From Candidatus Woesearchaeota archaeon (GTDB taxonomy: Archaea; Nanobdellota; Nanobdellia; Woesearchaeales; GW2011-AR15), in contig JAFGRO010000002.1 in the NCBI GenBank assembly GCA_016935095.1, positions 3,306-67,305 of the forward strand: a stretch of 64,000 nucleotides of DNA, in the 5' to 3' direction. Below are positions 1,679-46,133 of the stretch, piece by piece; within the stretch, counting starts at the first letter, position 1, and the number at the start of each line of letters is the position of its first letter. The notes below the pieces were generated by a model. That model was not told the origin of the DNA. It saw only the letters and a program-made list of their open reading frames with translations, and did not search any database. Made by a program: the position numbers and the translations under genes.

Positions 1679-1682
1679 TTAA

Positions 1683-6227: not shown

Positions 6228-7417
6228 TTGCAGGCCTCTTTAACTTCAGTTTTGAATTTATGTATCCTGATAATAGCTTTACATATTTTGTTAATTGTCT
6301 CTTCATCCATGAAATTATAGATAGGAAGACAAATCACATTATTTGAAACAAGTTCAGTATTTTTTAAATCATTATATTCTGCTTTTTCTTTATAAGCATC
6401 AAGTTTATGCATCGGAGGATAAAAATAAAATTTTGTCATAATATTTTCAGCATTCAATGCTCTTGCTAATTCATACCTGTTTAATCCAAATTCATTTTCA
6501 TTGACAGTAAATCCAAAATCCTTGTGTGTGGAAACATTTCCCTCTTTAATAATCTGGAAATTGATGCCCTGAATGTTTTTTAGTTCCTTTTTAAATTTAT
6601 CAACATAACTGTTCCTGTTTTCAACATATTTATCTAAATCTTTTAATTGGTGCAATCCTGTGACTGCGTTGATTTCGCTCATCCTTGCATTTAAACCAGG
6701 CCTCTTGCAGGAATAATCAGGATAATTGCCATAGTTCCTGTCAATTTTTAACATTTCAGCTAATTCAGTGTTATTTGTGGCTACTATTCCTCCTTCTATT
6801 GTCGTCAAAAGCTTTGTCGGGCTGGCACTGAAAACCTCAACATCACCAAACTGCCCGATTTTTTTTCCCTGATAAGATGAACCTAATGCATGGGCACAGT
6901 CAAAGATTAATTTTAAGTTATGTTTGCTGGCAATTTCCTGTAATCTCTCAATATAACAAGGGTTTCCATACATATGTACAGCAATAATTGCCTTTGTTTC
7001 AGGACTGATATTTTTTTCAACTTCTTCAGGTGAAATAGTAAATGTTTCCCTGTCAATATCAACAAATCTGATTTTGCAGTTATTCCAGTATGCGGCATGG
7101 ACTGTTGCAGAAAAGGTAAATGCAGGAACTAGCACTTCTGAATTTCTTAAACCAAGTGCCTGCATACTTAAAATTAAGCCGGATGTACAGGAAGAAACGC
7201 CTATAACATGTTTAACACCAATATAGTTTTCCAGTTCCTCTTCAAATTTCTTTAGTTTAATATCAACAGAAGTAAGCATATTGCTGTTTAAAACAGCGCT
7301 AATGTCTTTCAGCAATTCTTTTTCAACATATTTATCAACATTGGGCCTTATAATCGGCAGTCTTTTATCAAAAACAGCTCTCCCATTTAAAATTGCAGGT
7401 TTATTGTCCATTTTCAT
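6224..7417 (-). CDS. DegT/DnrJ/EryC1/StrS-family PLP-dependent sugar aminotransferase (PseC/LegC-like)
   Basis: Aminotransferase class V-like fold with the PLP-lysine context FSASPTKLLTT. The ORF track starts it at 7477, but the MKMDNK start at 7417 avoids a 77-nt overlap with the upstream gene. Confidence 0.85.
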   Translation of the reverse strand: MKMDNKPAILNGRAVFDKRLPIIRPNVDKYVEKELLKDISAVLNSNMLTSVDIKLKKFEEELENYIGVKHVIGVSSCTSGLILSMQALGLRNSEVLVPAFTFSATVHAAYWNNCKIRFVDIDRETFTISPEEVEKNISPETKAIIAVHMYGNPCYIERLQEIASKHNLKLIFDCAHALGSSYQGKKIGQFGDVEVFSASPTKLLTTIEGGIVATNNTELAEMLKIDRNYGNYPDYSCKRPGLNARMSEINAVTGLHQLKDLDKYVENRNSYVDKFKKELKNIQGINFQIIKEGNVSTHKDFGFTVNENEFGLNRYELARALNAENIMTKFYFYPPMHKLDAYKEKAEYNDLKNTELVSNNVICLPIYNFMDEETINKICKAIIRIHKFKTEVKEACK

Positions 7418-8075
7418 TATCTCCTTTAAAAATAAATTTATTTCCATATACTTCCAGGTAAGGTAAATCCCTTGCATTTGGAAAATATGTTGCTTTTAAT
7501 CTTCTTTTAATTTCATTTTCATCCATATCAAGGCTTAATTTACATAGTTCCTGCAAATCTTTTCTTGTATATGGTCTTCTTAACCATTTCTCATCTGACC
7601 TGGGTAAGGGTTTCTCTTTTTCAATGAATTTGAGAATATCATAAAATAAGGTGAGCATATAATCCATGGTTCTTTCTTTTAAAGATTGTACTGTATCTGT
7701 ATCCTGCATCTGGAATTTGATGGTTTTCACAATTTTTCCAGAATCAACTTTTTCCAGCATATAATGACATGTGGCGCCAAATTCCTTTTCCTGATTATAA
7801 ATTGCAAAATTATAACAGCCGATGCCAGGATATTTTGGGGATGCGGGATGGAAATTTATTGAAAACTTGGCTTTATTCAATAATTCTTTTGGAACAATCC
7901 AAGGTGAAAGATACGAGATAATATAATCACCTTCCCATTCAATATTGGGGAGAGGGTCACCGCTTTCACCTTCAAATATTTCTGTATTCGGAATTTTATT
8001 TTTAATACAATCCTGAACAATTTTGCAGTATTTTGATTTTTTTGTTAATAATAGGATTTTCATTTTTAATAACAA
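7401..8075 (-). CDS. Sugar N-formyltransferase (Formyl_trans_N family)
   Basis: FHPASPKYPGIGCYNFAIYN...GATCHYMLEKVDSGKIV matches the formyltransferase SLLPxYRG/HxxxxxxDxG catalytic-core pattern. Sits between the aminotransferase and the 2-epimerase, in the slot usually filled by an N-acetyltransferase. Confidence 0.75.
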   Translation of the reverse strand: MLLKMKILLLTKKSKYCKIVQDCIKNKIPNTEIFEGESGDPLPNIEWEGDYIISYLSPWIVPKELLNKAKFSINFHPASPKYPGIGCYNFAIYNQEKEFGATCHYMLEKVDSGKIVKTIKFQMQDTDTVQSLKERTMDYMLTLFYDILKFIEKEKPLPRSDEKWLRRPYTRKDLQELCKLSLDMDENEIKRRLKATYFPNARDLPYLEVYGNKFIFKGDNENGQ

Positions 8076-9217
8076 ATCTGCTTTTGGATTATATCTTTTG
8101 AAATTTTGATTTCACTTAATACTTTACAGATTTTAACTGAAGCAGTCCCTTCTCCATAAGGGTTTTTTATGTTTTTTAATAAATCTTTAAAATTTTCATC
8201 ATATAATGCTTTATTAATCGCTTTAATAATATCAGATTTGTCAAACTCAACATCAATCACGTTATTGCTTCTTTCTCTTAGCTTTTGCCTTATGCCAATA
8301 TTTACCACAGGTATCTTAAAAGAGGGAGCTTCTATTATACCTGAGCTTGAATTTCCGATTAAAACAGAACCATATTTTAATAATGAGAGATATTCTCTGT
8401 GCTTTAAATTTTTAAAAATTCTTAAAAATTTTTGATTCTTATTTCCCTCAATTATTTTAATTATCTGAAGAGTCCCAGAATCAGCATTGGGATAAATCAA
8501 TACTGTTGGCAAATCAAATTCTTTAATTGCATCAAGTGTTATTTTAAATTGTTTTCCTGAAGACCCGATTTCAGTTGTGACAGGATGCTGTAGAAGTATT
8601 AAAAAAGGCATATCCGGATCAATATTGAATCTTTTTTTGAAATCTTGTTTTGACATTAATTCTTCATGCAAAGCAGTATCTAGTCCTGAAGAACCCACAT
8701 TAAAAACATAATCCGGATTTTCTCCCATTTTAATTATTCTCTGTTTACTTTTTTCTGTAACTGCAAAATGAATATGGCTGAATTTTGTTATGGCATGTCT
8801 TGTGCATTCATCAAGACCTCCTGAAACATCCCCTCCGTGAATATGGGCAATAACCTTATTCATAAATGCTCCTGAAACAGCAGCAGCCAACGGCTCTGTT
8901 CTGTCACCTAAAATCAATATAATATCAGGATTTAAGTCTTTGAAAGCATTGGTTAAATTAATAATGCCTTTACCAACAGACCTGCTCATAAATTCTCCGC
9001 TGTCTCCGACTTCAGTCATTGGGACTTTTTTATCAATTGCAAAACCGTCTTTAATAATGTCTTCATAGGTATTACCGTATTCTTCCAAAAGGTGCATGCC
9101 CGTTGCAATTAACTGTAATGTGATTTTGTCATTTTCAGCTAGTCTTTTTATAATTGGCCTTAAAAGCCCGTATTCTGCTCTGGTTCCGGTCACAACACAA
9201 ATCTTTGTTTTTTTCAT
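8066..9217 (-). CDS. UDP-N-acetylglucosamine 2-epimerase family, hydrolysing type (NeuC/LegG-like)
   Basis: KICVVTGTRAEYGLLRPIIKRL and HIHGGDVSGGLDECTRHAITK are Epimerase_2 (WecB/NeuC) signatures. Confidence 0.85.
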   Translation of the reverse strand: MKKTKICVVTGTRAEYGLLRPIIKRLAENDKITLQLIATGMHLLEEYGNTYEDIIKDGFAIDKKVPMTEVGDSGEFMSRSVGKGIINLTNAFKDLNPDIILILGDRTEPLAAAVSGAFMNKVIAHIHGGDVSGGLDECTRHAITKFSHIHFAVTEKSKQRIIKMGENPDYVFNVGSSGLDTALHEELMSKQDFKKRFNIDPDMPFLILLQHPVTTEIGSSGKQFKITLDAIKEFDLPTVLIYPNADSGTLQIIKIIEGNKNQKFLRIFKNLKHREYLSLLKYGSVLIGNSSSGIIEAPSFKIPVVNIGIRQKLRERSNNVIDVEFDKSDIIKAINKALYDENFKDLLKNIKNPYGEGTASVKICKVLSEIKISKDIIQKQICY

Positions 9218-9228: not shown

Positions 9229-10365
9229 TTATTCCAGCATCTCAAATGTAATTAAAGTGTCTTTTTTAATATCCTCTTTTGCTTTTCTTCCAATGATTTT
9301 TTCTAAAAATCTCGGGTGCAGACCCATGCCCGGTCTTTTAATTATTAAATCTTTCTTTTCTATTAACTTGCCTTTATTGATGTCTTTATCTGAGATTATG
9401 CTTTTTCTTGTAATTTTTGCAATTCGTAACTCTGCGTCATATGGTTTTTTTTCAGGTGACCCGAGGATTTTTTCAATATTATCTAATTTCAGATTCTCAC
9501 CAAATTGTTTATTAATCTCTTCAAAAGCCTGTTTTGGAGAGAGAATCTTATTATTAAAAATAAATCTTGAATATTTCATTATTTTTTCAATTTCATCAGG
9601 TTCAGCAGAAGCTTTGTGGTCAGGGCCATACATTTTTTTATCAAGTGTAAAATGTTTTTCAATTACATTAGCGTTAAGACATGCCGCTATTACAGATGCT
9701 TCAATTCCCTCACTATGATCCGAGAATCCGACCAGACAATTAAATTCATTTTTAAGTGTAAGCATTGCTCTCAGGTTAATTTTATCAAGAAGCGTTGGAT
9801 AATTAGTAGTGCATTGCAGTAATATGAGTTGGTCATTATTTTTCTTAATCACATCTACAGCTTCTCTGACTTCCTGTAAATTAGCCATTCCCGTACTAAG
9901 AAAGATTGGTTTGCCTAATCTTGAAACATAATCTAAAAACGGCAAATTAGTCAAATCTCCTGAACCAATTTTAAATCCGGGAATTCCAATTTTATCAAGA
10001 ACATCAGCACTCCATTTGCCGCAGTGAGGTGTTGATAAAAAAATAATCCCCTTCTTGTCACAGTACTCTTTCATGATTTTGTGTTGCTCTTCTGTTAATT
10101 CTATCCTTTTTAATAATTCAAGATAACTTTCATCACTTCCTGTGTTTTTTTTTGAATACTCGACCTGTTCTGTTTTTTCTGTTACAAGCAGTTCTGCTTT
10201 AAAAAGCTGGAACTTAATACTATCAACACCGATTTCCAGGGCTTTGTCAACTAATTCCTTTGCAATTTTAATATCTCCGTTATGGTTGACTCCGGCTTCA
10301 GCAATAATAAAGCAGGGATGATTTTGTCCGATTATTTTGTTGCCAATCTTAATTTTATCTTTCAT
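9229..10365 (-). CDS. Nonulosonate synthase (NeuB/LegI-like), copy 2, with C-terminal SAF domain
   Basis: CFIIAEAGVNHNGDIKIAKELVDKALEIG is the NeuB signature. The C-terminal ~60 aa look like a SAF antifreeze-like domain (LIIKRPGMGL). Confidence 0.9.
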   Translation of the reverse strand: MKDKIKIGNKIIGQNHPCFIIAEAGVNHNGDIKIAKELVDKALEIGVDSIKFQLFKAELLVTEKTEQVEYSKKNTGSDESYLELLKRIELTEEQHKIMKEYCDKKGIIFLSTPHCGKWSADVLDKIGIPGFKIGSGDLTNLPFLDYVSRLGKPIFLSTGMANLQEVREAVDVIKKNNDQLILLQCTTNYPTLLDKINLRAMLTLKNEFNCLVGFSDHSEGIEASVIAACLNANVIEKHFTLDKKMYGPDHKASAEPDEIEKIMKYSRFIFNNKILSPKQAFEEINKQFGENLKLDNIEKILGSPEKKPYDAELRIAKITRKSIISDKDINKGKLIEKKDLIIKRPGMGLHPRFLEKIIGRKAKEDIKKDTLITFEMLE

Positions 10366-11582
10366 TTCTCAGTCTCCCATATTGGGTGTCTCAGCTTCCA
10401 TTCTCCTTTTTCCTTTTTCCATAAATGAGGCGACCTGAATTTATCCGCTGTCTCAAAAAATTCATCTTTGCTCATATCCAGATACTCTAAAAATTCTTTG
10501 AAATATCGTTTTGGAAATTCTGAATCAAATTTCTTTACTAATGCAATCCCTTCATCCCTTGTGATCTTTTTATTCCTTATCTCCTGGGATGCATCATAGG
10601 TTGCTCTTCCAATCCCGAATTTGATAAGAGTTGTCCAATAATGATAAGGGTCTGTCTTGTCATCAATACTGTTATATTTTGAATAAGTTCCTTCGGTTCT
10701 CTGGTCATTTGGCTGAAACCCTATCTTTTCAACAGCAAAATAATAAGCTTCCTGGGGATCCCATTTCTCATAATAGCCGACGTAGTGTACATTGATTTCT
10801 TTATTATTTGCACTATCCGGATCAAGAGGAAGATAAGGATCAAGGTCAGTCATAGTTAATCCGTATTTTTTAATAAGCTCTCTGACCTGCACTCCTCCAA
10901 GGAATAAATTCATATAATCTCCATGTAAATGAAATTTTTTTTCTCTGAGAGAAGAAAGAACATCTTTTTTTGGGTTGCCGTATTCTGCTTCATTTTCACC
11001 GTAAAATACTAGAGGGACATCATACTTTAATGCAAATTTAGCCCCAATGTTTTTTTGTCCGAGAATAAACGGCTGGAATGGGTGAAGTAAATTGACAAAT
11101 GCTAATCTCGTTAATAACCTGTGTACCTTGCCATTTGGTGTAAACAGTATATTGTCAAATCCCCCTTTTTGAGTCCATGCGCGGAAATTACGCCACCCGT
11201 AAGGTGTAAATAAATGAGGTGCCCATGTAACAGTAAGAGGGTTCATATTGTATTTGTATTTTAACAGCCATGCTGCCATTGTGCTATCCTTGCCTCCGCT
11301 TCCCGGCACTATGCAATCATACCTACCCTCTGTTCTTCTGTATTTGTCACATAATCTTTTTAATTCTTTTTCTCTTTTTTTCCAGTCGATTTTCTCTTTT
11401 AATTCTGAAACTCTGCATGCATCGCAGATTCCTTCTTCATCAAAGTTGATGGTGTGTTTTTTGGATTTAACTGTATGTCTGAATTCCAGTGAAGAAGAAG
11501 GTCTTTGATTTGAAATAACACAATGTTTGCAGTATTTCACTTCTTTTGGTAATCCATAATATGCTTCTACGTTATTGTTCAT
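10362..11582 (-). CDS. N-acetyl sugar amidotransferase (WbuX/PseA/AglX family; PP-loop ATP pyrophosphatase)
   Basis: N-terminal Zn-ribbon cysteines (CKHCVISNQRP...GICDACR). PP-loop SGGKDS. Immediately upstream of a HisF/HisH paralog, as in the WbuXYZ / AglXYZ systems. Confidence 0.8.
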   Translation of the reverse strand: MNNNVEAYYGLPKEVKYCKHCVISNQRPSSSLEFRHTVKSKKHTINFDEEGICDACRVSELKEKIDWKKREKELKRLCDKYRRTEGRYDCIVPGSGGKDSTMAAWLLKYKYNMNPLTVTWAPHLFTPYGWRNFRAWTQKGGFDNILFTPNGKVHRLLTRLAFVNLLHPFQPFILGQKNIGAKFALKYDVPLVFYGENEAEYGNPKKDVLSSLREKKFHLHGDYMNLFLGGVQVRELIKKYGLTMTDLDPYLPLDPDSANNKEINVHYVGYYEKWDPQEAYYFAVEKIGFQPNDQRTEGTYSKYNSIDDKTDPYHYWTTLIKFGIGRATYDASQEIRNKKITRDEGIALVKKFDSEFPKRYFKEFLEYLDMSKDEFFETADKFRSPHLWKKEKGEWKLRHPIWETEK

Positions 11583-11592: not shown

Positions 11593-13026
11593 TTATAAAG
11601 AACTAAAATATTGTATTATACTCATACCCAATGCTCCGCTTTTTTCCGGGTGGAACTGTGTTGCAAACAGACTGTCTCTTCTTAATATTGAGCAGAATTT
11701 CTGCTCACCGTATGTTGTTATTGCAACAATATTTTTCGGGTTTTCAGGATAAACATAATATGAATGAATAAAATAAGCTTCTGAGCAAGAAGACTTATTT
11801 GAAATAAACTCATTAAAGAATCCATTATTAGGTGTTAACTTATTCCAACCCATGTGAGGGATCCTGTAATATGTGTCCTTAACCTCTTTTTTAGGTTTAA
11901 AAGGAACTACTTTTCCCTGTATAATATCAAGCCCTTTATGATGTCCGAACTCAAAGCTTTCACTCATCAATACCTGCATTCCGAGACAGATTCCTAAAAA
12001 AGGTTTATTGTTCTTAATATATTTTTTAATCGGTTCAATAAAACCCCTGTTTTTAAGCTCCTGCATAGCATAACCAAATGCCCCGTCCCCTGGTAAAACC
12101 AAAAGGCTTGACTTTAGGATCTCTTCAGGATTTTCAATAATCTTTACTTTGTTCCCAAAAAACCTGAAAGCATTTACAACACTTTGTAAATTGCCTGCTC
12201 CGTAATCAATAACAGAGAGGGTCTTTTTATTATTGATATTTGGCTGTTCAACTTGCCATTCATTTTTTTCTCTCATTAAAAAATTATTTTTTTTAAGGTA
12301 AGCTTTTACTTGGTCTATAGATGTTTCATTATAATGTAAGATTGTACCAAAAGCAACAGCATCACATCTGGTTACTTCAAGACAATTCAGTATATCTGCT
12401 TCATTAGAAGCTCCTCCGCAAGCTATAACCGGCACATCAACCACAGATGAGATCTTTTTTATTAGTTCAACATCATATCCTTTTCTTGTCCCTTCCTTAT
12501 CCACAGAAGTAACAAGCAATTCTCCTGCACCTAATTCAACTAATTTTTTTGCCCATTCAATAGCATCTAGATTTGTTCTTTCCCTTCCGCAGTCAATATA
12601 GTTCTCCCATTTATCTTCTCCATGATATTTTGCTTCAATAGAGCCTACTATACACTGTGATCCGAACATTCTTGAAGCCTGATTAATAAATCCGGGATTT
12701 CTTATTGCAGCAGTATTAATTGCAACTTTATCTGCTCCTGCTCTCAGCAGTTTCTTAATATCTTCTATGGTCCTTATACCTCCTCCGACAGTGATAGGAA
12801 TAAAAATCCCGTTAGAGGTTGTATTTTCAACTACCTCAAGAAGATTGTTTCGCTCGTATAAACTGGCAACAATATCAATATAAATTATTTCATCAGCTCC
12901 TGACTCATAATACTTCTTAGCAAGCAAATCAGGCTTGCCTACAACTCTTAAACCTTCCATTTGTATTCCCTTGACAACATTAGGTCCCTTTACATCCAGT
13001 CTTGGAATAATTCTGATTTTCTTCAT
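11593..13026 (-). CDS. Fused imidazole-glycerol-phosphate-synthase-like protein: HisF-like cyclase domain (WbuZ) at the N-terminus and HisH-like class I glutamine amidotransferase (WbuY) at the C-terminus
   Basis: N-terminus IIPRLDVKGPNVVKGIQMEGLRVVGKP plus a second half-barrel (VTSVDKEGTRKGYD) give a HisF fold. C-terminus LSVIDYGAGNLQSVVNAFRFFG...GICLGMQVL...FHPEKS carries the GATase Cys-His-Glu triad. Confidence 0.85.
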   Translation of the reverse strand: MKKIRIIPRLDVKGPNVVKGIQMEGLRVVGKPDLLAKKYYESGADEIIYIDIVASLYERNNLLEVVENTTSNGIFIPITVGGGIRTIEDIKKLLRAGADKVAINTAAIRNPGFINQASRMFGSQCIVGSIEAKYHGEDKWENYIDCGRERTNLDAIEWAKKLVELGAGELLVTSVDKEGTRKGYDVELIKKISSVVDVPVIACGGASNEADILNCLEVTRCDAVAFGTILHYNETSIDQVKAYLKKNNFLMREKNEWQVEQPNINNKKTLSVIDYGAGNLQSVVNAFRFFGNKVKIIENPEEILKSSLLVLPGDGAFGYAMQELKNRGFIEPIKKYIKNNKPFLGICLGMQVLMSESFEFGHHKGLDIIQGKVVPFKPKKEVKDTYYRIPHMGWNKLTPNNGFFNEFISNKSSCSEAYFIHSYYVYPENPKNIVAITTYGEQKFCSILRRDSLFATQFHPEKSGALGMSIIQYFSSL

Positions 13027-13721
13027 TTTATCTCCATTAATTTTTCAGCTATCTTCCAGTCAATAGGCTCATCAATATCTATAGAACTGATCTTATCCAT
13101 AGGAAAGGGGAATACCCTTTTTCCATAGCCATAATTACCTGATTTAAAAATTACATCTGATGTGTAAATATAAATAGCCCCGTTTATTTCATAGGTTTCT
13201 TCTTCATCCTGTGTTCTTAAGACATTAAAATCATTCTCAAAAAGAAATCTTACTTGATTTTTCTCTTTTTTTAAAATCCACTGCGGACCAAGATGTCTCT
13301 TTGTCACAGAAAACAATGTGTCTGCATTATTGTCAGCAAATATTTTTATTGCAGAATCAATATGCTCGGCTTTTCTTAATGGAGATGTTGGTTGCAGCAG
13401 GACAACAATATCCGGAATATATTTCTCATTTGCATTCAGATAATTTAAAACATGCTTTAATACATCAATTGATTTAGACGTATCTTCTGCAAGTTCTTTT
13501 GGTCTGTCGATAATCTCCGCTTTGTATAGCAATGCACTGGCTTTTATTTCAGGGTCTTCAGTAGATACTATTGTCCTGTCAATATATTTTGAGTTTAGGG
13601 ATTGCTCAATAGAATAAGCAATTAACGGCCTGCCTTTTAATAATCTAATATTTTTTTTTTTAATTCTTTTAGAGCCGCCTCTGGCAGGAATTATTGAGAT
13701 AATCTTTCTCTTACCATACAT
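13023..13721 (-). CDS. Acylneuraminate cytidylyltransferase family (CMP-nonulosonate synthetase), copy 2
   Basis: IISIIPARGGSKRIKKKNIRLLKGRPLIAYSIEQS is a CTP_transf_3 signature. 4-nt overlap with the downstream gene. Confidence 0.85.
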   Translation of the reverse strand: MYGKRKIISIIPARGGSKRIKKKNIRLLKGRPLIAYSIEQSLNSKYIDRTIVSTEDPEIKASALLYKAEIIDRPKELAEDTSKSIDVLKHVLNYLNANEKYIPDIVVLLQPTSPLRKAEHIDSAIKIFADNNADTLFSVTKRHLGPQWILKKEKNQVRFLFENDFNVLRTQDEEETYEINGAIYIYTSDVIFKSGNYGYGKRVFPFPMDKISSIDIDEPIDWKIAEKLMEIK

Positions 13722-14220
13722 AAGGATCTACCCTGTCTTTATCATCATATTCCTTCAGTTTAAGCAGGTCATATGTTTCGAATTTGTATGCTACAGTTGT
13801 AAGTGATTCAGACCACTCGCTGATAAGATTGCTGTTCTTCTTTTTAATCTCGTCACTTACCCTTGCCAAATCCTCATGGTTTTTGGCAATTATGACAAGT
13901 GTGAAATCATATTCACCTGAGATTGAAAATACTTCTGCAATTCGCGGGTGTTTTACTACAAATTCTATGAATGATTGTACTTTTTTATGGTCATAGTTGT
14001 GCAACTTTACTTTTATGTCTACAATATAGGGATATCCAAGAATCCTTGGTCTCAGCTGGATTTTCGGGTTAAAAATCTTTTCTTTTCTCATCTTTTCAAT
14101 TCTTTTTTTTACTGAGTCAACAGAAAGCCCGACCTTTTTAGCTATGTCAGTCAGTGACATCCTGCAGTCTTCCTGAAGCAGATTCAGAATAAGACAGTTT
14201 TTTTTGTCTAAATCAACCAT
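13711..14220 (-). CDS. lrp: Lrp/AsnC-family transcriptional regulator (HTH plus RAM domain), first gene of the 14-kb operon
   Basis: N-terminal HTH LLQEDCRMSLTDIAKKVGLSVDSVKKRIEKM. C-terminal RAM/AsnC_trans_reg-like domain. 169 aa is typical for archaeal Lrp. Confidence 0.85.
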   Translation of the reverse strand: MVDLDKKNCLILNLLQEDCRMSLTDIAKKVGLSVDSVKKRIEKMRKEKIFNPKIQLRPRILGYPYIVDIKVKLHNYDHKKVQSFIEFVVKHPRIAEVFSISGEYDFTLVIIAKNHEDLARVSDEIKKKNSNLISEWSESLTTVAYKFETYDLLKLKEYDDKDRVDPYVW

Positions 14221-14507: not shown

Positions 14508-15953
14508 ATGTTCACAAAAAAAAACAAAGTATTGTTTATAATTCATGATGTATACCAGGAAGATAATCAGTTTCCATTAGGTCCAGGTTATCTTGCTGCT
14601 GTTCTTAATGATAAAGGAGCTTATGTTGAATCATACTGTATGGATATATTTCATTATACCCATGAGCAGCTGGCAGAGCATTTGCAGAAAAACGAGTATG
14701 ATTTAATATGTCTGGGCTTTTTAGCTGCCAGGTTCAAGGAAACAGTTCTTGATTTAAGCAGAGTTATTAATCAGAATAAGAAAAATGCATGGCTTGTTTT
14801 AGGTGGTCACGGTCCCTCTCCGATTCCTGAATATGTGCTAAAAACCACACAGGCAGATGTTATTGCTATAGGCGAGGCAGAAAACACTATTGTTGAATTA
14901 TTAAAATGCAAAATATCAGATGGTGATTTATCAGAAGTGCATGGCATTGCTTACCCTGAAAATAATGAAATAAGAATAACGCAAAAAAATAATATTGTTA
15001 AAAATCTGGACAACATCCCTTTTCCCTTGTGGGATATATTTCCAATGGCTAAATATACTACTTGTTTACAATTATTTAATCAGGAGTCAAATGAAAAAAG
15101 TTTTGTATTCCTCACGAGCAGGGGCTGTGTAAACAGGTGTAATTTCTGCTACAGGCTTGAAAAAGGGCTGAGATTAAGAAGTATATCAAATATTATTGAA
15201 GAATTCAGACAATTATATGACAGATATGGTTTGAATTGTTATTTTTTCATGGATGAATTATTTGTATTAAATAAAAAACGGTTATTGGAATTTGAAAAAG
15301 CACTTAAAGATGCAAATCTGAAAATAAAATTCTCCTGCAATGCAAGAGTTGACATTATGGATGAAGAAATGGTGAGGATTCTTAAAAGATGCGGCTGCCA
15401 ATTTATAAATTTCGGTTTTGAATCAAGCGATGATAATGTGCTTAAACTCATGAATAAAAATGCGACTGTTGAACAAAATATAAGGACGCTTGAGGTTGTT
15501 AAGAAGGTAGGAGGAATAGGGATGGGTCTTAATTTTCTCTGGAATAATTTAGGTGATAGCGAAAGAACCCTGAAGCAGAATGTTGCATTAATAAAGAGAT
15601 ACAACACATATGACCAATGCCGTACAATCAGACCTGTTACGCCTTATCCCGGATCTGATTTATATTATAAATTGATTGAGCTAGGGAAACTAAAAGGTCC
15701 TGAAGATTTTTTTAACAGGTTTATAAATTCAGATTTAATTTTAGTTAACCTTATGGATATGCCAGATAAAGAAGCATATCAGCATTTGTTAAAAGCAAAC
15801 ACAGAGCTTATTCTTGACCATTATAAGCATACCCAAGGAGATATGGAAAAGGCAAATGCGCTTATCCGGAAATTCAAAGACTTGTATGAGGGCAGGATAA
15901 CTAATTTTCGTGGTGCCAGGCATTATAACAAAAACGAGCAACAGAGTAAATAG
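14508..15953 (+). CDS. Cobalamin-binding (B12) radical SAM protein, class B radical-SAM family
   Basis: N-terminal B12-binding-like Rossmann domain (KVLFIIHDVYQ...LGPGYLAAVL...DLICLG). Radical-SAM cluster motif RGCVNRCNFCY (CxxxCxxC). Confidence 0.85.
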   Translation: MFTKKNKVLFIIHDVYQEDNQFPLGPGYLAAVLNDKGAYVESYCMDIFHYTHEQLAEHLQKNEYDLICLGFLAARFKETVLDLSRVINQNKKNAWLVLGGHGPSPIPEYVLKTTQADVIAIGEAENTIVELLKCKISDGDLSEVHGIAYPENNEIRITQKNNIVKNLDNIPFPLWDIFPMAKYTTCLQLFNQESNEKSFVFLTSRGCVNRCNFCYRLEKGLRLRSISNIIEEFRQLYDRYGLNCYFFMDELFVLNKKRLLEFEKALKDANLKIKFSCNARVDIMDEEMVRILKRCGCQFINFGFESSDDNVLKLMNKNATVEQNIRTLEVVKKVGGIGMGLNFLWNNLGDSERTLKQNVALIKRYNTYDQCRTIRPVTPYPGSDLYYKLIELGKLKGPEDFFNRFINSDLILVNLMDMPDKEAYQHLLKANTELILDHYKHTQGDMEKANALIRKFKDLYEGRITNFRGARHYNKNEQQSK

Positions 15954-15984: not shown

Positions 15985-17610
15985 TCAGGTTCCGGCAATT
16001 CTGTAAATCTCTTTTACAATATTTTCTGTCCCGTTAAAAGGCTGATATAAATATTTTTCAATCTCTCTCCGGTTTTTATTAAGGACTTTTGTGAGTTTAT
16101 TTTTATTATTCACAATCCTGGCTACCTTTGAAAAATCATCTTTTATTCCCTGTTTTATAATGGTTTCTAGTTCATTGTATTCATAACCGCCGATTTGCTC
16201 ATATCCCGGAACAACAAAATAAACAACCAGTTTGTTCATCAGGATTGTATCAATCATACAGGTTGATCCGAAAGAAATGCAGAACAGGCTGTTCTTTATT
16301 AAATTGTGCAGTATTTTCTGGTTATTGTGATCACTTTTAGACCTTATTATCTCAATATCCATATCTTTGAATCTGTTCTTGAAGTTGTAATATGAATTAA
16401 TCAGCTTTTCAGCCGGGTGCAGTTTAATTTTAACCTTATTAAATCCTCTGTTTTTGAGGTTTTTCAGTATGGTCTCAATAATGGATGAATATTGCTTTTT
16501 GCTAAAATAATTATCTTCAACAACAGGCTGGGTAAATAAGAGAACATATTGTCCTGAAATATCCTGATTCTGCTGTATCTCAAATTTAAGATCTTCAAAT
16601 AAATTAGTTCCTGTTGCAATTATTCGTTTTAAAGCTTCCTTGTTTTGGTATTTGGCAATAATCTTTCTTTGGGGTTTTCCGAATGTAAAATAATATTGCT
16701 TTTCCAAAAGATAAAGATACTCCAATTCAAATAATGGTCCGTGCTGGATTATAACAGAAGGAATATTTCCTGTATGTGCAGCGGCATGCGCACATTCATC
16801 TAAAAGGCCCCAGGTAGAAAATATCAGCTTGATCTTCCTTTGCTTTATGATTTTTTCAAATGTATAATAATATAAAAAGACAATACTTAACCACTCTTCT
16901 GAAAACAGGAAATTAAATTCTTCTTCAATATAGGGATAGAATGATTTGTTTTTGAGAGCAAGTATCTTTTTTATTTTATTTTTACTGAGCCTTTTCCATT
17001 TGAAATTATACTCCCTGGCTTTACGCAGGGATTTTTTAAACAGGGTATCATCAAAAAAATCTTCTGCCCTTAGAAAATCCATGCTTGGCTTAATATTTGA
17101 GAAATATGATAAGGGTTGTATCGAAACTAAATTGCATTCAAATTTATTATCTTTTTTTATTTTTTCAATGATGCTGCTCAGCCTGTAGGCAGTTACTTTG
17201 TCATTTATTGTCCGGATCTGGTCTGCATATGTCTGGAACAATATCCCTTCTCTGCTGCAATTAGTTGTCTCGGGCCTGTTCAATTTCCAGGTAAACCACC
17301 TGAAATAAAAAACAAATTTTAGATACATTAAGACAAGGCCAAATGCAATCTTCTTATTTATTTTATATAAAATGCTTCTCTTCTTATTCTTCAGGTATGC
17401 ATTAATATTGTCCTGTAAATTCCAGGATCTTATATTAAACGGCGTTCTGATTAATTTATCCTTTAGAAACCAAAATAAGGGAATTCCATTAAAATCAAGA
17501 AATTTGCCGGTTTCTATATCCTTACCTTTATATTCCGCAAATTTATAAATTAAATATCTTACCTTTTCCAGAATTTCATTACTCATTTGTATGGACCTTT
17601 GATTATTCAT
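15985..17610 (-). CDS. Membrane-anchored GT-B-like glycosyltransferase-like protein, paralog of 2817..4454
   Basis: Shares with 2817..4454 its architecture and the CAHAAAHTGNIPSVIIQHGP motif, a hydrophobic helix near residue 100 (FGLVLMYLKFVFYFRWF), and a C-terminal GT-B-like segment (FCISFGSTCMIDTILMNKLVVYF). Confidence 0.5.
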   Translation of the reverse strand: MNNQRSIQMSNEILEKVRYLIYKFAEYKGKDIETGKFLDFNGIPLFWFLKDKLIRTPFNIRSWNLQDNINAYLKNKKRSILYKINKKIAFGLVLMYLKFVFYFRWFTWKLNRPETTNCSREGILFQTYADQIRTINDKVTAYRLSSIIEKIKKDNKFECNLVSIQPLSYFSNIKPSMDFLRAEDFFDDTLFKKSLRKAREYNFKWKRLSKNKIKKILALKNKSFYPYIEEEFNFLFSEEWLSIVFLYYYTFEKIIKQRKIKLIFSTWGLLDECAHAAAHTGNIPSVIIQHGPLFELEYLYLLEKQYYFTFGKPQRKIIAKYQNKEALKRIIATGTNLFEDLKFEIQQNQDISGQYVLLFTQPVVEDNYFSKKQYSSIIETILKNLKNRGFNKVKIKLHPAEKLINSYYNFKNRFKDMDIEIIRSKSDHNNQKILHNLIKNSLFCISFGSTCMIDTILMNKLVVYFVVPGYEQIGGYEYNELETIIKQGIKDDFSKVARIVNNKNKLTKVLNKNRREIEKYLYQPFNGTENIVKEIYRIAGT

Positions 17611-17664
17611 CCTATAAACTTTTCTAAGTAAACTATTTAAAAACCTTTTCTTTCTTTTTAAAAG

Positions 17665-18687
17665 ATGATTAATTTAATTAAACAAAAATTTCAGTCTTTT
17701 GCAAATAATAACCTGTTATTCAAAAAAACCCTTTTCTTTTTAATAAATACCTTCCCTTTTGATAAAGTTTACGATTTTTTGTATAAAAATCAGATTAAAA
17801 AAATAGCTACAAAAATAAAAATTCCAGGTTATATCCTTATTGAGCCGTACAATGTCTGCAATGCCCGCTGCACAATTTGTCCTTATAAAAAAATGACCAG
17901 GAAAAAACAGCTCATGCAGATGAAATTGTTCAAAAAAATCATTGATGACTGTAAAAATAACAATATTAAGACAATTGATTTAACGTTTTATAATGAGGCT
18001 TTTTTAGACCCGCTTCTGTTTGAGAGGATAAAGTATGTTAAAGACAACAATCTGAGGATTTATCTTTTTTCAAATGGTTCTGTTTTAAATAAACAAAATA
18101 TTGACAGAATTCTTGAGATGGAAGTAGATGATATCAGTTTCAGCCTTGATGGTGCAGCTAAAAAAACATATGAAAAAATCAGAAAAGGCCTGAATTATGA
18201 TACAGTTAAGGAGAATATTCTGAATTTAATAAAAGAAAGAGATAAGAGGAAACTCAAGAAACCAAGAATCGAGCTGAATTATGTAATCACAAATGAGAAT
18301 TTAGCTGAAATTGAAAAATTTAAGGGACAATGGAAAAATCTTGCTGATAATATAAGGTTTAGTGTTGTTGACACCCGGGAACAGGAAAACAAGCTTCCGA
18401 AAAAATATAAAGTAAAAAAATCAAAAAAGCCATGGCCATGCACGAGAATCTGGGAAGCAATGCAGGTAATGAGCAATGGAAAAGTAGTGATGTGCTGTGT
18501 TGATTATGATGGTGAAGTTATTGTAGGTGATTTAAATAAACAGACCATTAAGGAAATATGGGACAGTGATAAATTTAAAAGATTAAGATTGCTGCATTTA
18601 AAAAATAAAGCAGATAAAATCCCCCTATGCAGGAAATGTTCCTGGCTTTACAGGCACAACAGGGTTAACTGGTGGTTTTTTAATTAA
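17665..18687 (+). CDS. Radical SAM protein with C-terminal SPASM/twitch-type auxiliary Cys cluster
   Basis: CNARCTICPY (CxxxCxxC) near the N-terminus. C-terminal cysteines WPCTRIW...MCCVDYDG...CRKCSW fit a SPASM auxiliary 4Fe-4S domain. Confidence 0.8.
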   Translation: MINLIKQKFQSFANNNLLFKKTLFFLINTFPFDKVYDFLYKNQIKKIATKIKIPGYILIEPYNVCNARCTICPYKKMTRKKQLMQMKLFKKIIDDCKNNNIKTIDLTFYNEAFLDPLLFERIKYVKDNNLRIYLFSNGSVLNKQNIDRILEMEVDDISFSLDGAAKKTYEKIRKGLNYDTVKENILNLIKERDKRKLKKPRIELNYVITNENLAEIEKFKGQWKNLADNIRFSVVDTREQENKLPKKYKVKKSKKPWPCTRIWEAMQVMSNGKVVMCCVDYDGEVIVGDLNKQTIKEIWDSDKFKRLRLLHLKNKADKIPLCRKCSWLYRHNRVNWWFFN

Positions 18688-20542
18688 ATTTTTTATAGTT
18701 CTCTTTTTTAATATAAATCTTATACCACAATCCGAAACTCAATAATGTGTTTAACTGATAGCGGTAGTCTTCTCTCTTATTCAGATGCTCATTAAATAAT
18801 TTGCTGACTGATTTTAAATTTAATAATGGTTTTAATTCCCTGTCAAAAATAATCTCTTCTGTGAATTCTCTTAATTCTTTTCTGAACCATTCGCCTGTAG
18901 GAAGATTAAACCCGTGTTTTTTCCTGTAAATAATCTCTTTAGGCAGTCTGTCTTTCATTGCAAGCTTTAAAATATGCTTTGTTTCAAAGCCGTTTACCTT
19001 GTGTTTAACAGGAATACCGGCTGCCAGTTCTGTAATATTATGATCAAGAAAAGGGACTCTGGCTTCGAGGGAATTCATCATGCTCATCTTGTCAACCTTA
19101 AACAGGGCATCATCAGGCAGCCATGTTTTTATCTCTGTATAGAGATTTTTATTCAGTTCAGCGTAGTTTTTGATTTTGGGATTATATCTGTCTAAAATAT
19201 TTTTTTCAGAACCAATATAATCTTTTAATTTATATGAATAAATCTTTTTTTTTAAGTCATTATCAATAAACATATTCCAGGAAAGGCTTCTTAAAGCATC
19301 ATTGTTAATAGAGTAATTCTTCAGGGCTCTTAATTCATTACCTGTTTTGTTTAGAAAATTCTTACTTAAATTTAGAATTGAATTTTTAATAACTCCGGGC
19401 AGTTTGCTATAAAATCTTCCATGATGCTGGAATAAAGCCTGCCTATACCCTATAAAGGATTCATCACCACCATCACCTGATAGTGCAACCGTAACTTTTT
19501 TTCTTGCAAACTCGCTGACCATGTGCGTTGGAATACATGCAAAATCCCCAAAAGGCTCATCCAGATGCCATGTGATTTTTGGCAATAGCTCCCTGATATG
19601 ATTGAAATCCATAATAATTTCATGATGATCAGTTTCATATCTCTCAGAAATTTTCCTTGCAAAAGGCAATTCATTATAAGAAGCTTCTTCAAAACCAACT
19701 GAAAATGTTTGTACAGGCTCTTGAGAAAATTTAGACATTGTGGCAACAACCGCACTTGAATCAATTCCCCCGCTTAAAAAAGCTCCTATCGGCACATCAG
19801 AAATTAATCTTCGCTTCACAGATAAATCCAGTTCATGCTGAATCTTTTTTACAAAATAGTCTTTTGATTTTTTTAGTGGGTTATAGTTTAAATCATACCA
19901 TTGTTTTATTATTAATTTATTATTTTTTAGTTTTAGAAAATGGCCAGGCTGGAGCTTGTAAATGTTTTTAAACAGGGTCTTTGGCCCCAGAGAGAATTTG
20001 TATGTAAAATAATTATTTAATGCTTCTAAATCAATTTCCCTATTGATACCTGTTTCAAGAATAGCCTTGATCTCAGATGCAAATATGAATTTAGTTTTGT
20101 CCCAATAATAATATAATGGTTTTATACCATACCTGTCCCTTGCAATAAACAATTCTTTTTTGTCATCATCCCATATAGCAATTGCAAACATGCCGTTTAA
20201 TAAATCAAGGCACTTTTCCTGTAGCTCTTCATATAGATGAAGAATCACTTCTGTATCTGTTCTAGAAATGAACTTATGCTTTTTTTTAAGTGCAGCTTTC
20301 AGTTCATTATAGTTGTATGTTTCACCATTATAATTTATCCATAGATTACCTTCTTCATTGCACATCGGCTGGTTGCCTTTAACAGAAGTATCAATTATAG
20401 CGAGTCTTCTCTGTCCAAAAGAAACACCTTTTGATGTATAATAGCCTGCAGCATCAGGCCCGCGGTGCTTTAAAATATTTGTGCATTTTCTGATTAATTT
20501 TTGATCTTCCCAGTTAAAGCCGATAATGCCGCACATAATCAT
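18680..20542 (-). CDS. Asparagine synthetase B-family glutamine-dependent amidotransferase (AsnB/WbpS-like)
   Basis: N-terminal MCGIIGF carries the Ntn catalytic Cys2. PP-loop SGGIDSS. Length 620 aa. Confidence 0.9.
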   Translation of the reverse strand: MIMCGIIGFNWEDQKLIRKCTNILKHRGPDAAGYYTSKGVSFGQRRLAIIDTSVKGNQPMCNEEGNLWINYNGETYNYNELKAALKKKHKFISRTDTEVILHLYEELQEKCLDLLNGMFAIAIWDDDKKELFIARDRYGIKPLYYYWDKTKFIFASEIKAILETGINREIDLEALNNYFTYKFSLGPKTLFKNIYKLQPGHFLKLKNNKLIIKQWYDLNYNPLKKSKDYFVKKIQHELDLSVKRRLISDVPIGAFLSGGIDSSAVVATMSKFSQEPVQTFSVGFEEASYNELPFARKISERYETDHHEIIMDFNHIRELLPKITWHLDEPFGDFACIPTHMVSEFARKKVTVALSGDGGDESFIGYRQALFQHHGRFYSKLPGVIKNSILNLSKNFLNKTGNELRALKNYSINNDALRSLSWNMFIDNDLKKKIYSYKLKDYIGSEKNILDRYNPKIKNYAELNKNLYTEIKTWLPDDALFKVDKMSMMNSLEARVPFLDHNITELAAGIPVKHKVNGFETKHILKLAMKDRLPKEIIYRKKHGFNLPTGEWFRKELREFTEEIIFDRELKPLLNLKSVSKLFNEHLNKREDYRYQLNTLLSFGLWYKIYIKKENYKKFN

Positions 20543-23416: not shown

Positions 23417-24067
23417 TTATCTTTTTTTAAACTCTTCCCAGTTGTCCAGAAATTCCTGGATTGTGCTCTCTGTTCTCGGGTTCCAGGGCAGTTTCATTAA
23501 AATAGGAGTTGGTATTGTTAGAATATGAGCTCCGCTAAGCATTGCCCTGTTTATATGCGAAACCTGCCTGAAGCTTCCCAAGATGATTTCTGATTTGATT
23601 TTATGCCTTTCAAAAATCTCAACAGTTTCACAAACAATTTGTTCGGCATTATAGCCCATATCCTCTATCCTTGCCCAGAATAAGCTCACGAATGTGGCAC
23701 CTGCTTTTGCCGCTAAAACCGCCTGCTTTGTACACATGCATGCAGTAACATTGGTTTTTATGCCTTCTTTATTAAGTATGTTCACTGCTTTGAGGCCTGT
23801 AATCCCCATTGGAATTTTTACATTAACGTTATTACCCCATTTTGCAAATTTCCTGGACTGTCTAATCATTTCATCTAAATCATTTGAAGTAACCTCAATG
23901 CTTATCGGTCCTTTCACAATCTCAATAATCTCTTTCATTCTGGTTTCAAAATCAATGCCTTTTTCTTTTGATACAATGCTGGGATTAGTTGTACAGCCGT
24001 CAATAATACCCCAGCTTAAAAGTTCTTTTAATTCATCCAGATTTGCAGTGTCTGCAAATATTTTCAT
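23417..24067 (-). CDS. tal: Transaldolase / fructose-6-phosphate aldolase family (short archaeal-type Tal/FSA)
   Basis: MKIFADTANLDELKEL..GIIDGCTTNPSIV is the Tal/FSA N-terminal signature. 216 aa. Confidence 0.85.
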   Translation of the reverse strand: MKIFADTANLDELKELLSWGIIDGCTTNPSIVSKEKGIDFETRMKEIIEIVKGPISIEVTSNDLDEMIRQSRKFAKWGNNVNVKIPMGITGLKAVNILNKEGIKTNVTACMCTKQAVLAAKAGATFVSLFWARIEDMGYNAEQIVCETVEIFERHKIKSEIILGSFRQVSHINRAMLSGAHILTIPTPILMKLPWNPRTESTIQEFLDNWEEFKKR

Positions 24068-24131
24068 TTTAAATCACCCTTTTTATTATATATATTTAAA
24101 ATGAAAACTACGAACATGAGTGAGTTTGTTT

Positions 24132-25290: not shown

Positions 25291-25301
25291 TTTTTTCAGC
25301 C

Positions 25302-26288: not shown

Positions 26289-26362
26289 CCCAAGATATAA
26301 ACAAAAATAACCGCTATATAAAGCTTTCGCCGAAAAATTTATAAAGAGAAAATCTCATAAAT

Positions 26363-27103: not shown

Positions 27104-27104
27104 T

Positions 27105-46085: not shown

Positions 46086-46133
46086 TTTTAAATAAGAATT
46101 GTTATTTTTATTATAAATCTTTTTGAAAATATT

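Follow-up and report, generated by a model that had tools for sequence, protein, structure and literature searches.

R1, one of three radical SAM proteins encoded on a Candidatus Woesearchaeota MAG contig, very probably tailors nonulosonic acids of the legionaminic/pseudaminic type, as judged from gene order, because R1 orthologues and R1-like genes are linked to genes encoding NeuB and a CMP-synthetase in 10 of 12 loci, versus none of the seven loci of homologues of its two companions, R2 and R3. The enzyme class suggests that R1 is most plausibly a C-methyltransferase. The reading that best explains the window (the whole 64,000-nucleotide stretch of DNA analysed) is that of a surface-glycan island of about 50 kb, in which R1 would C-methylate a nonulosonic acid, R3 would act on another glycan, and the role of R2 is a local guess; we give this combined reading a probability of roughly 0.55.

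The three open reading frames were confirmed by a mechanical ORF listing at the coordinates first assigned to them by an earlier, sequence-only reading of this DNA:

14508..15953, + strand: R1, radical SAM protein with a B12 domain (481 aa, ATG start)
28388..29935, − strand: R2, radical SAM protein with a class-B fold, from a subfamily other than that of R1 (515 aa, ATG start)
47431..49164, + strand: R3, class-B radical SAM protein of a third, small subfamily (577 aa, GTG start)

The translated proteins carry a CxxxCxxC motif (CVNRCNFC in R1, CPYSCSYC in R2, and CPYNCSFC in R3) inside the Pfam Radical_SAM domain PF04055, which scores 73.6, 54.0, and 75.9 bits, respectively, against a cutoff of 29.5, and all three thus belong to the radical SAM superfamily. 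The B12-binding domain PF02310 (cutoff 32.1 bits) is detected in R1 (42.0 bits) and R3 (40.2 bits), while R2 stays below the cutoff at 26.5 bits. Despite this score, both domains of the R2 AlphaFold model (pLDDT 90.3) can be superposed on those of the cobalamin-dependent enzymes TsrM, MgmA, CysS, OxsB, and TokK, and the predicted structure confirms a B12-type fold; the R1 model (pLDDT 88.6) superposes on the same five enzymes, also over both domains. A Rossmann B12-type domain therefore precedes the barrel in R1 (Pfam and model), R2 (model), and R3 (Pfam), which is the class-B architecture that the sequence-only reading had proposed, and its reservation that the B12-binding fold might be missing does not apply. 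The same reading had called the three proteins paralogous, a description that holds at the level of the superfamily and fails for close kinship: pairwise identity is 27% for R1 and R3, 23% for R1 and R2, and 28% for R2 and R3, so that the proteins represent three separate subfamilies rather than recent paralogues, and their close homologues form three separate sets. R1 has GGHGPS at the place of the GGxHxT-like motif of R2 and R3. No transmembrane segment is predicted in any of the three. Annotation of the neighbouring genes agrees with the placement of all three among nucleotide-sugar and glycosyltransferase genes.

None of the curated family cutoffs of the NCBIfam models (BchE, HpnJ, AprD4, and others) is reached by R1, R2, or R3. 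The top-scoring models for the three proteins are those of BchE, HpnJ, ladderane-lipid, and MCR-methylase enzymes, all far below their cutoffs. The BchE model (TIGR02026, cutoff 481.35 bits) gives 125.3 bits for R1, 49.8 for R2, and 149.2 for R3, and the HpnJ (TIGR03471), HpnR (TIGR04367), and ladderane-lipid radical SAM (TIGR04072) models give at most 113 bits against cutoffs of 577.6, 650, and 360. The likeness to the BchE, HpnJ, and ladderane-lipid families thus lies in their being the highest-scoring curated models, and the difference in scores of 50–149 bits against cutoffs of 360–578; as these matches amount to only 10–30% of the cutoffs, they reflect generic superfamily similarity, and the clustering with BchE-like or lipid-modifying enzymes that had been considered a threat to the sequence-only reading does not apply. 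The AprD4 model (NF033070, cutoff 500 bits) aligns with the core alone, at 77.6 bits for R1, 22.1 for R2, and 52.9 for R3, and the PhpK model (TIGR04479), related to GenK, Fom3, and GenD1, gives 87–91 bits against a cutoff of 600. Homologues of the three proteins are frequently labelled “BchE” by public annotation pipelines. Because the scores lie so far below the cutoffs and no tetrapyrrole or hopanoid genes occur near R1, R2, or R3, the public label “anaerobic Mg-protoporphyrin cyclase” is a misnomer.

The genes around R1 in the window are the following:

217..2714, − strand: second ulosonic-acid module, comprising a class I methyltransferase, a CMP-transferase, and a short NeuB without a SAF domain
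2817..4454, − strand: GT-B protein of the BFO_1060 / “surface carbohydrate biosynthesis” type (weak match), a candidate nonulosonic acid transferase
4479..8075, − strand: CBS+SDR 4,6-dehydratase-like protein (582 aa), DegT/PseC/LegC-type aminotransferase, and formyltransferase
8066..9217, − strand: NeuC-type hydrolysing 2-epimerase (455.1 bits, cutoff 235.9)
9229..10365, − strand: NeuB-type nonulosonic acid synthase with a SAF domain (399.2 bits, NeuB cutoff 399.65)
10362..11582, − strand: WbuX N-acetyl-sugar amidotransferase (374.6 bits, cutoff 203.2)
11593..13026, − strand: HisF–HisH fusion, a WbuZ/WbuY-like glutamine amidotransferase pair for acetamidino formation
13023..13721, − strand: CMP-ulosonic acid synthetase (CTP_transf_3), with PseF as best match, below cutoff
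13711..14220, − strand: Lrp/AsnC-type regulator, divergent from R1
15985..17610, − strand: 541-aa protein with no family match, convergent with R1
17665..18687, + strand: radical SAM/SPASM protein with no equivalog match
18680..20542, − strand: AsnB-type glutamine amidotransferase

The genes at 4479..8075 account for the first reactions of a 5,7-diamino-tetradeoxy-nonulosonic acid pathway, and the cassette brings together NeuB, whose score is borderline, NeuC, and a CTP_transf_3 protein recognised at the Pfam level (98 bits); this CMP-synthetase does not reach the PseF equivalog (157 bits versus 205.7). A WbuXYZ acetamidino module is also present, in which WbuX and HisH (188.4 bits, cutoff 105.4) exceed their cutoffs and WbuZ lies slightly below (276.1 bits, cutoff 299.7). 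R1 is monocistronic and is separated from the regulator gene by a repeat-containing intergenic region of 287 bp, and its position, divergent from the Lrp/NulO operon rather than inside it, counts against a role in the pathway. The 541-aa protein is distantly related to the product of 2817..4454, as both match the same protein of locus L005.

R1 orthologues with 59–75% identity occur in DPANN archaea, methanogens, CPR and CPR-like bacteria, and Desulfovibrionales (a Solidesulfovibrio), and the clade has a sharp boundary: among 44,360 superfamily representatives, about 30 representative clusters score above 260 bits. In unrelated genomes, the orthologues are physically linked to nonulosonic acid cassettes consisting of NeuB, a CMP-synthetase, NeuC, and an aminotransferase, often accompanied by a radical SAM/SPASM protein and a WbuXYZ module. 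In each of the positive loci (the window, L005–L010, L022, L026, and L028), both a NeuB-type synthase and a CMP-transferase are encoded no more than about 4 kb from R1 or the R1-like gene, and the other two of the 12 loci end about 1 kb from the gene; against the R2- and R3-homologue loci, which served as controls, the one-sided Fisher test gives p of about 7e-4. The most constant neighbour of R1 orthologues is the CMP-ulosonic acid synthetase. The R1 orthologue in L005 overlaps the stop of the CMP-transferase gene and the start of the NeuB gene on the same strand, and that in L022 follows HisH–HisF–rSAM/SPASM–WbuX in one co-directional operon. Homologues of the radical SAM/SPASM protein at 17665..18687 recur in L005, L022 (two copies), and L026, and weakly in L006, and the more distant R1-like genes of L026 and L028 have homologues of all three genes at 217..2714 nearby. 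The neighbours also include putative nonulosonic acid transferases of the BFO_1060 or PseD/Maf type, both below curated cutoffs. WbuXYZ stands beside R1 in only five of eight close loci, which speaks against naming an exact substrate. This gene order, kept across domains, strongly supports the proposal of the sequence-only reading that a nonulosonic acid is the modified sugar, as far as R1 is concerned; the notion that such modifications are an archaeal matter does not stand, since the R1 clade is common to archaea and bacteria.

The proposed chemistry would begin with the cleavage of SAM by the reduced [4Fe–4S] cluster of R1 to yield a 5'-deoxyadenosyl radical, which would abstract a hydrogen atom at an unactivated carbon, either in the sugar itself or in its CMP/NDP-linked precursor. 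The substrate radical would then take a methyl group from methylcobalamin, to be regenerated by a second SAM, and the product would be a C-methylated (C10) ulosonic acid, subsequently CMP-activated and transferred. GenK-, GenD1-, and Fom3-type class B enzymes C-methylate aminoglycoside sugars or phosphonates. They offer a precedent, by likeness of chemistry, for the B12-radical SAM methylation of an unactivated amino-sugar carbon proposed for R1; they belong to secondary-metabolite clusters of actinomycetes, whereas the setting of R1, in anaerobic archaea and bacteria, is a primary cassette for cell-surface nonulosonic acids. Solved structures of cobalamin-dependent radical SAM C-methyltransferases, namely MgmA (9CCB), CysS (9N1B-D), TokK (7KDX), and TsrM (6WTE), show 15–19% identity, and the substrates of these enzymes are peptides, carbapenems, tryptophan, and polyketide-type methoxy groups, with no nonulosonic acids among them.

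R1 might instead act on the nonulosonic acid pathway without methylation, by an AprD4-like dehydration or deoxygenation, an epimerisation, or an OxsB- or HpnJ-like rearrangement, with an N-terminal domain that is structural or cobalamin-free; we regard this as somewhat unlikely. The N-terminal domain of AprD4 is B12-like and is not known to bind cobalamin. Among enzymes of solved structure, the sugar diol-dehydratase AprD4 is closest to the R1 core, and structure searches place this cobalamin-free enzyme level with the cobalamin enzymes. The top Foldseek match of the R1 model is OxsB (PDB 5UL2-4), a cobalamin-dependent ring-contraction enzyme with the same two-domain architecture and about 20% identity, showing that an R1-type architecture is capable of non-methylating chemistry on a sugar ring. 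OxsB is larger (744 aa) and has additional domains; its substrate is a deoxyadenosine phosphate, and it requires the partner OxsA. The supply of cofactor also weighs against cobalamin-dependent methylation: the window contains no cobalamin uptake or salvage genes, and DPANN and CPR organisms are, to our knowledge, generally unable to make cobalamin. An Rfam scan of the window found neither a cobalamin riboswitch nor any other RNA. Against a non-methylating R1, the AprD4 family model aligns with R1 residues 158–405 only, and the alignment with AprD4 itself (PDB 6FD2), a radical SAM 1,2-diol dehydratase of apramycin biosynthesis, is confined to the core (200–405 of the R1 family profile), whereas the R1 N-terminal domain exceeds the Pfam B12-binding cutoff. 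The alignment of the same profile spans both domains for cobalamin-bound OxsB (23–369, 76.9 bits) and cobalamin-bound CysS (6–361), and this match of the R1 N-terminal domain with their cobalamin domains, and not with that of AprD4, is a weak positive hint of cobalamin binding. Most characterised enzymes of class-B architecture are methyltransferases, and a MetK gene adjoins the R1-like gene in L026. C-methylation of a nonulosonic acid hence remains the preferred reading for R1. Mass spectrometry of Magnetospirillum gryphiswaldense and Methanococcus has brought to light backbone-extended (+CH2) “higher-carbon” (C10) CMP-ulosonic acids, with no structure or gene assigned. That the R1 clade makes such compounds from nine-carbon legionaminic/pseudaminic-type sugars by cobalamin-dependent radical C-methylation at an unactivated carbon, for example the C9 methyl, is a speculative extension that we consider unlikely.

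A further alternative, very unlikely for the three proteins taken together, is that they are not glycan enzymes and instead modify lipids, cofactors, RNA, or proteins within a variable, horizontally acquired island. Such a view could draw on the lipid, tetrapyrrole, and MCR models at the head of the NCBIfam matches, on the R2 homologue of Desulfatiferula, which lies among hydrolase, HipA, and RHS toxin genes, and on the fact that R2 and R3, like R1, are monocistronic or gap-separated in the window. The scores of those models speak against it, however, as do the association of R1 with NeuB and CMP-transferase genes in both archaeal and bacterial loci, same-strand overlaps included, and the glycosyltransferases that flank R3 homologues in every locus examined. 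For R2 alone, a role outside glycan metabolism remains plausible.

R2 lies between intergenic gaps of 348 bp and 235 bp, upstream of a gene cluster of the same strand:

23417..28040, − strand: nucleotide-heptose operon downstream of R2, with FSA/transaldolase, GmhB-like, GmhA-like, HddA-like kinase, HddC-like nucleotidyltransferase, and dehydratase-like SDR genes

The named families are the best or near-best matches of these genes, all below equivalog cutoffs (GmhA 94 bits versus 209, HddA 162 versus 600, GmhB 134 versus 178, and HddC 113 versus 300). It is doubtful that R2 alters the heptose made by this operon, say by C-methylating or deoxygenating GDP-glycero-manno-heptose. In favour of it, R2 is co-directional with a complete FSA/GmhA/HddA/GmhB/HddC/SDR set 348 bp away, and the R2 homologue of L014 has a gene of the heptosyltransferase family GT9 at a distance of about 3.6 kb. 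The wide gaps on both sides nonetheless suggest a separate transcription unit, and the R2 homologues of L014–L017 have no heptose-pathway gene closer than 10 kb, nor do the short contigs L011 and L012 carry one, so that the heptose link suspected in the sequence-only reading finds no echo elsewhere. R2 has roughly 30 close homologues; a metagenome scan returned a single close homologue, on a 3.4-kb contig, and the neighbours differ in every locus examined. Because the neighbourhood is not conserved, a role of R2 in the heptose pathway beside it is no more than a guess from this one locus.

Glycosyltransferase genes stand immediately upstream of R3:

43455..47309, mixed strands: PMT_2 (GT-C) glycosyltransferase (+), GT2 (−), and GT4 (−)

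The R3 orthogroup is tiny, at about 17 proteins. A GT4 gene adjoins R3 or its homologue in the window, L018, and L019, a PMT_2 gene is present in the window and L018, the closest R3 homologue is flanked by the same GT4 and PMT_2 families, and glycan genes occur at the R3-homologue loci L020 and L021; the PMT_2 proteins beside R3 and beside its homologue show no detectable orthology. Since the R3 clade recurs beside GT4 and other glycosyltransferases, R3 probably acts on another glycan of this cell envelope. Membrane anchoring through the C-terminal extension of R3 (about 180 aa) was rejected, as no transmembrane segment is predicted. A B12-rSAM–GT4 fusion protein (P0355) was dropped as support for R3; being equally similar to R1 and R3, it shows only that the broad superfamily can fuse to glycosyltransferases.

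Nonulosonic acids cap flagella, S-layers, and lipopolysaccharides, and motility, immune evasion, and recognition by phages are under their control. All nonulosonic acid tailoring that we know of is N- or O-linked and proceeds by polar chemistry, and we know of no radical SAM enzyme among those that tailor legionaminic or pseudaminic acid. Described tailoring of these sugars comprises acetamidino formation, N-methylation, and O-methylglyceroyl addition, as by Campylobacter PtmG/PtmH (bioRxiv 10.64898/2026.04.20.719630). As proposed for the R1 family, the accessory genes lie among the core genes and their products act at the (CMP-)sugar level, and one such system, the WbuX/HisH/HisF module, is present in the window itself. 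For Campylobacter fetus, one paper lists uncharacterised phase-variable radical SAM genes of the MoaA/NifB/PqqE/SkfB family, numbered close to formyltransferase and methyltransferase genes. In the literature searched, no relevant prior work ties radical SAM or B12 enzymes to legionaminic, pseudaminic, nonulosonic, or sialic acid, to flagellin glycosylation, or to polysaccharides.

The R1 family is thus a highly conserved, uncharacterised family that travels with nonulosonic acid genes, pointing to an undescribed radical modification of such sugars. If this is true, radical SAM tailoring would be a new, carbon-skeleton type of nonulosonic acid modification, extending from DPANN archaea to Desulfovibrionales, and a proper family assignment would replace the misleading “BchE / Mg-protoporphyrin cyclase” labels on some members. 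It also raises the question of whether cobalamin-auxotrophic, genome-reduced DPANN and CPR organisms obtain B12 from elsewhere or have repurposed the domain. Should the C10 proposal hold as well, the C10 ulosonic acids that metabolomics has left unexplained would gain a specific candidate gene in R1, and the surfaces of anaerobic archaea, DPANN/CPR episymbionts, and sulfate reducers would widely bear C-alkylated sialic-acid-like sugars.

Three open reading frames of the window, termed R1, R2 and R3, encode radical SAM proteins of class B architecture, and the coordinates and CxxxCxxC motifs given for them in the sequence-only reading agree with the translations. They lie among the following features of the window, whose GC content is ~32%.

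217–13721, minus strand: nonulosonic acid region, consisting of a short module and a legionaminic-type set
13711–14220, minus strand: Lrp/AsnC regulator, from which R1 runs divergently
14508–15953, plus strand: R1, 481 aa, motif CVNRCNFC
15985–20542: 541-aa glycosyltransferase-like protein, radical SAM/SPASM protein, AsnB-type amidotransferase
20621–23381, plus strand: methyltransferases and GT2
23417–28040, minus strand: heptose operon FSA/GmhB/GmhA/HddA/HddC/SDR
28388–29935, minus strand: R2, 515 aa, motif CPYSCSYC
30170–47309: further methyltransferase, GT2, UbiA, membrane proteins, GT4s, PMT_2, others
47431–49164, plus strand: R3, 577 aa, GTG start, motif CPYNCSFC
49201–52233: KaiC/Rad51-like protein, EamA, ribosomal protein uS2
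beyond 52567: central metabolism

The Radical_SAM domain is present in all three proteins (54–76 bits; Pfam cutoff 29.5). The B12-binding-like N-terminus that had been assigned to each holds for R1 and R3 (PF02310, 42.0 and 40.2 bits; Pfam cutoff 32.1), whereas R2 falls below the cutoff at 26.5 bits. The proteins had also been called paralogous; with pairwise identities of 23–28%, and with homology searches returning a separate set of close homologues for each, they are three subfamilies rather than recent paralogues. None of them reached membership of a curated NCBIfam family, as the top models (BchE, HpnJ, the ladderane-lipid enzyme, BzaD, the MCR glutamine methylase, PhpK, and AprD4) were matched at 50–149 bits against cutoffs of 360–775; the proteins thus do not cluster with BchE-like or lipid enzymes, the placement set against the idea of sugar modification. 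The observation itself is confirmed, and its interpretation, in which sugars, possibly a nonulosonic acid or a heptose, are modified, is supported in part, most strongly for R1 and the nonulosonic acid.

The neighbourhoods of R1 orthologues were compared against the annotated genes of the window. In all six of the genome loci found (L005–L010), the orthologue adjoins a CMP-transferase inside a NeuB/NeuC/DegT/dehydratase set; the L005 copy shares its strand with CMP-transferase and NeuB and overlaps the stop of the former and the start of the latter. The orthologue of a Solidesulfovibrio MAG (L022) resides in a single co-directional operon with the order SDR–DegT–acetyltransferase–NeuB–CMP-transferase–HisH–HisF–rSAM/SPASM–WbuX–R1–rSAM/SPASM. 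Four more distant relatives (43–50% identity) lie on IMG/VR contigs, two of which carry homologues of NeuB, of CMP-transferase and of the short module of the window (217–2714), while the other two end ~1 kb from the R1-like gene. Overall, NeuB and CMP-transferase occur within ~4 kb in 10 of 12 R1 or R1-like loci, compared with none of the seven loci of R2 or R3 homologues (one-sided Fisher p ~7e-4), and R1 is most probably an enzyme of the nonulosonic acid pathway (probability about 0.85). The WbuXYZ acetamidino module accompanies R1 in five of the eight close loci. R1 is found alongside legionaminic-type gene sets, which contain NeuC, as well as pseudaminic-type ones that lack it (L022), so what they share is the 5,7-diamino-3,5,7,9-tetradeoxy-nonulosonic acid scaffold itself. 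The large neighbours of R1-type genes show weak similarity, always below curated cutoffs, to glycosyltransferases of the BFO_1060/"surface carbohydrate" type or to the flagellin-modification protein PseD/Maf.

Several further features of these loci were observed. A radical SAM/SPASM protein outside the curated families recurs (window 17665–18687; L005 4651–5670; L022 7559–8578 and 11347–12348), its two Solidesulfovibrio copies flanking WbuX and R1, and it may provide a second radical step in the same pathway. A 606-aa ORF of L009 (9558–11378) shares 50% identity with the window NeuB over its NeuB-like part; as CMP-transferase was not detected there as a gene of its own, the ORF may be a NeuB–CMP-synthetase fusion. 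On the contigs classed as viral (L025–L028), the R1-like genes have neighbours for NeuB, CMP-transferase, methyltransferase, a PseD/Maf-like protein and MetK; these contigs are cellular and wrongly classified, or else they belong to viruses that carry ulosonic-acid cassettes. On L026, the SAM synthetase MetK (564 bits; cutoff 309) directly follows the R1-like gene.

In the window, the legionaminic-type set comprises a CBS–SDR dehydratase, a DegT aminotransferase, a formyltransferase, NeuC (455 bits; cutoff 236), NeuB (399.2, just short of 399.65), WbuX (375 bits; cutoff 203), a HisF–HisH fusion, and a CMP-transferase. Its putative 4,6-dehydratase (4479–6227) is a 582-aa fusion: ~230 N-terminal residues similar to the CBS region at the C-terminus of KpsF/GutQ are followed by a LegB/PseB-like SDR with all scores below cutoffs. 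Such an architecture is unusual for the enzyme that opens a nonulosonic acid pathway. The short module (217–2714), a second and compact ulosonic-acid module, encodes a class I methyltransferase, a CMP-transferase, and a short NeuB without a SAF domain (272 bits, under the NeuB cutoff). All three genes have homologues in the loci of the more distant R1-like genes (L026 and L028), sometimes together with a SIS isomerase, which suggests a distinct ulosonic acid pathway. In the region between the regulator and R1 (14221–14507), a 15-bp direct repeat, TTAAAATTTAAGATT, occurs at ~14323 and ~14386; the region also has TTTTTCGTA repeated in tandem and, ~65 nt upstream of where R1 starts, a TATA-like AAGTATATAAAAAAGG. 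These elements may constitute an operator and a divergent promoter.

To the observed architecture and pathway association of R1, class precedent adds a candidate chemistry, C-methylation, as catalyzed by GenK, Fom3, TokK, CysS, and MgmA. The reduced cluster would split SAM into a 5'-dA radical, which would take a hydrogen from an unactivated sp3 carbon; methylcobalamin would then methylate the substrate radical and be recharged by a second SAM. We give C-methyltransferase activity about even odds. Non-methylating radical chemistry on the same pathway is a tentative alternative, to which AprD4 lends weight as the top sequence match to the R1 core and as joint best structural match to the predicted R1 model; AprD4 is a sugar diol-dehydratase whose B12-like domain is not known to bind cobalamin. 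The R1 family profile, however, aligns over both domains with cobalamin-bound OxsB and CysS and with AprD4 over the core only, which modestly favours a functional cobalamin domain in R1. DPANN and CPR organisms usually cannot synthesize cobalamin, and the Rfam scan and gene map revealed nothing bearing on its supply within the window.

Magnetospirillum gryphiswaldense is reported to have CMP-activated ulosonic acids with a backbone marker fragment of m/z 311.10, compared with 297.09 for legionaminic/pseudaminic acids, a shift that corresponds to an additional CH2 in the carbon chain and for which the authors argue against O-methylation; the same species occurs at low abundance in Methanococcus, and these acids are without an assigned structure or gene (bioRxiv 10.64898/2026.04.20.719630; Kleikamp et al. 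2020, PMC8157484). If an R1-type enzyme C-methylates, its product would be exactly such an acid, which makes the family a lead for their source. Alternatively, a C10 sugar could arise if a NeuB-type enzyme condensed PEP with an amino sugar derived from a heptose, and a heptose operon is present in the window.

Action of R2 in that adjacent heptose pathway is an unlikely local guess, because heptose-pathway genes were absent near the homologues in the loci examined, and gaps of 348 bp and 235 bp separate R2 from its neighbours. Approximately 30 close R2 homologues (44–56% identity) come mostly from Desulfobacterota-type bacteria; one is placed between genes for an AlgX-like and an MBOAT protein, with GT9, PMT_2 and sulfatase genes close by, another next to genes for an alpha/beta hydrolase, HipA and an RHS toxin, and a 31% relative has an SDR gene on one side and a methyltransferase gene on the other.

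R3 belongs to a small orthogroup (six proteins at 50–52% identity, one at 40%, ~ten at 31–37%). Its nearest homologue for which neighbouring genes are available (Patescibacteria, 51%) has GT4 and PMT_2 on its flanks, the families that also flank R3, with no detectable orthology between the PMT_2 proteins. A 37% homologue lies between GT4 and GT9, and a 31% homologue adjoins an SDR epimerase/dehydratase, a methyltransferase, an ABC-2 exporter pair, another radical SAM gene, and GT4s; these glycosyltransferase neighbours associate R3 with glycans at the family level. The C-terminal extension of R3 (~180 residues) has no predicted transmembrane segments. An 891-aa protein, P0355, fuses an N-terminal class B radical SAM part to a C-terminal GT4 glycosyltransferase and is equally similar to R1 and R3. 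A second, unrelated class B gene occurs in the glycan cluster of an R1 or R3 homologue at L006 17279–18718 and L021 7243–8805; therefore, several B12-type radical SAM genes per glycan island are not unique to the window. Between R2 and R3, at 31602–35361, a UbiA-family prenyltransferase precedes three multi-pass membrane proteins outside Pfam families (538 aa, ~9 hydrophobic segments; 309 aa, ~8; 117 aa, 3), a group reminiscent of a polyprenyl-phosphate-sugar/GT-C type system.

The three proteins are already deposited, with identical NCBI entries named only "(B12-binding domain-containing) radical SAM protein", and some homologues are wrongly labelled Mg-protoporphyrin cyclase. A full-text literature search, with most subscription journals outside its coverage, found nothing that links radical SAM enzymes, B12-type or otherwise, to legionaminic acid, pseudaminic acid, any other nonulosonic acid or flagellin glycosylation; a Campylobacter study lists uncharacterised phase-variable radical SAM (MoaA/NifB/PqqE/SkfB-family) genes whose gene numbers are close to those of formyltransferase and methyltransferase genes. 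Class B enzymes in sugar pathways are already known, while the link of the R1 family to this pathway appears undescribed. An exhaustive search with R1 retrieved 44,360 representative clusters of the superfamily, of which only ~30 scored above 260 bits; below these, scores drop to the generic level (30–32% identity), so the clade is sharply delimited. Its members, 59–75% identical, span Woesearchaeota, Pacearchaeota, Diapherotrites/Iainarchaeum, Methanosarcinales, Methanoregulaceae, several Patescibacteria, and Solidesulfovibrio, an unusually high conservation between domains. The most valuable outcome is the specific, testable proposal that anaerobic archaea and bacteria share, in the R1 clade, a conserved accessory enzyme for making nonulosonic acids.
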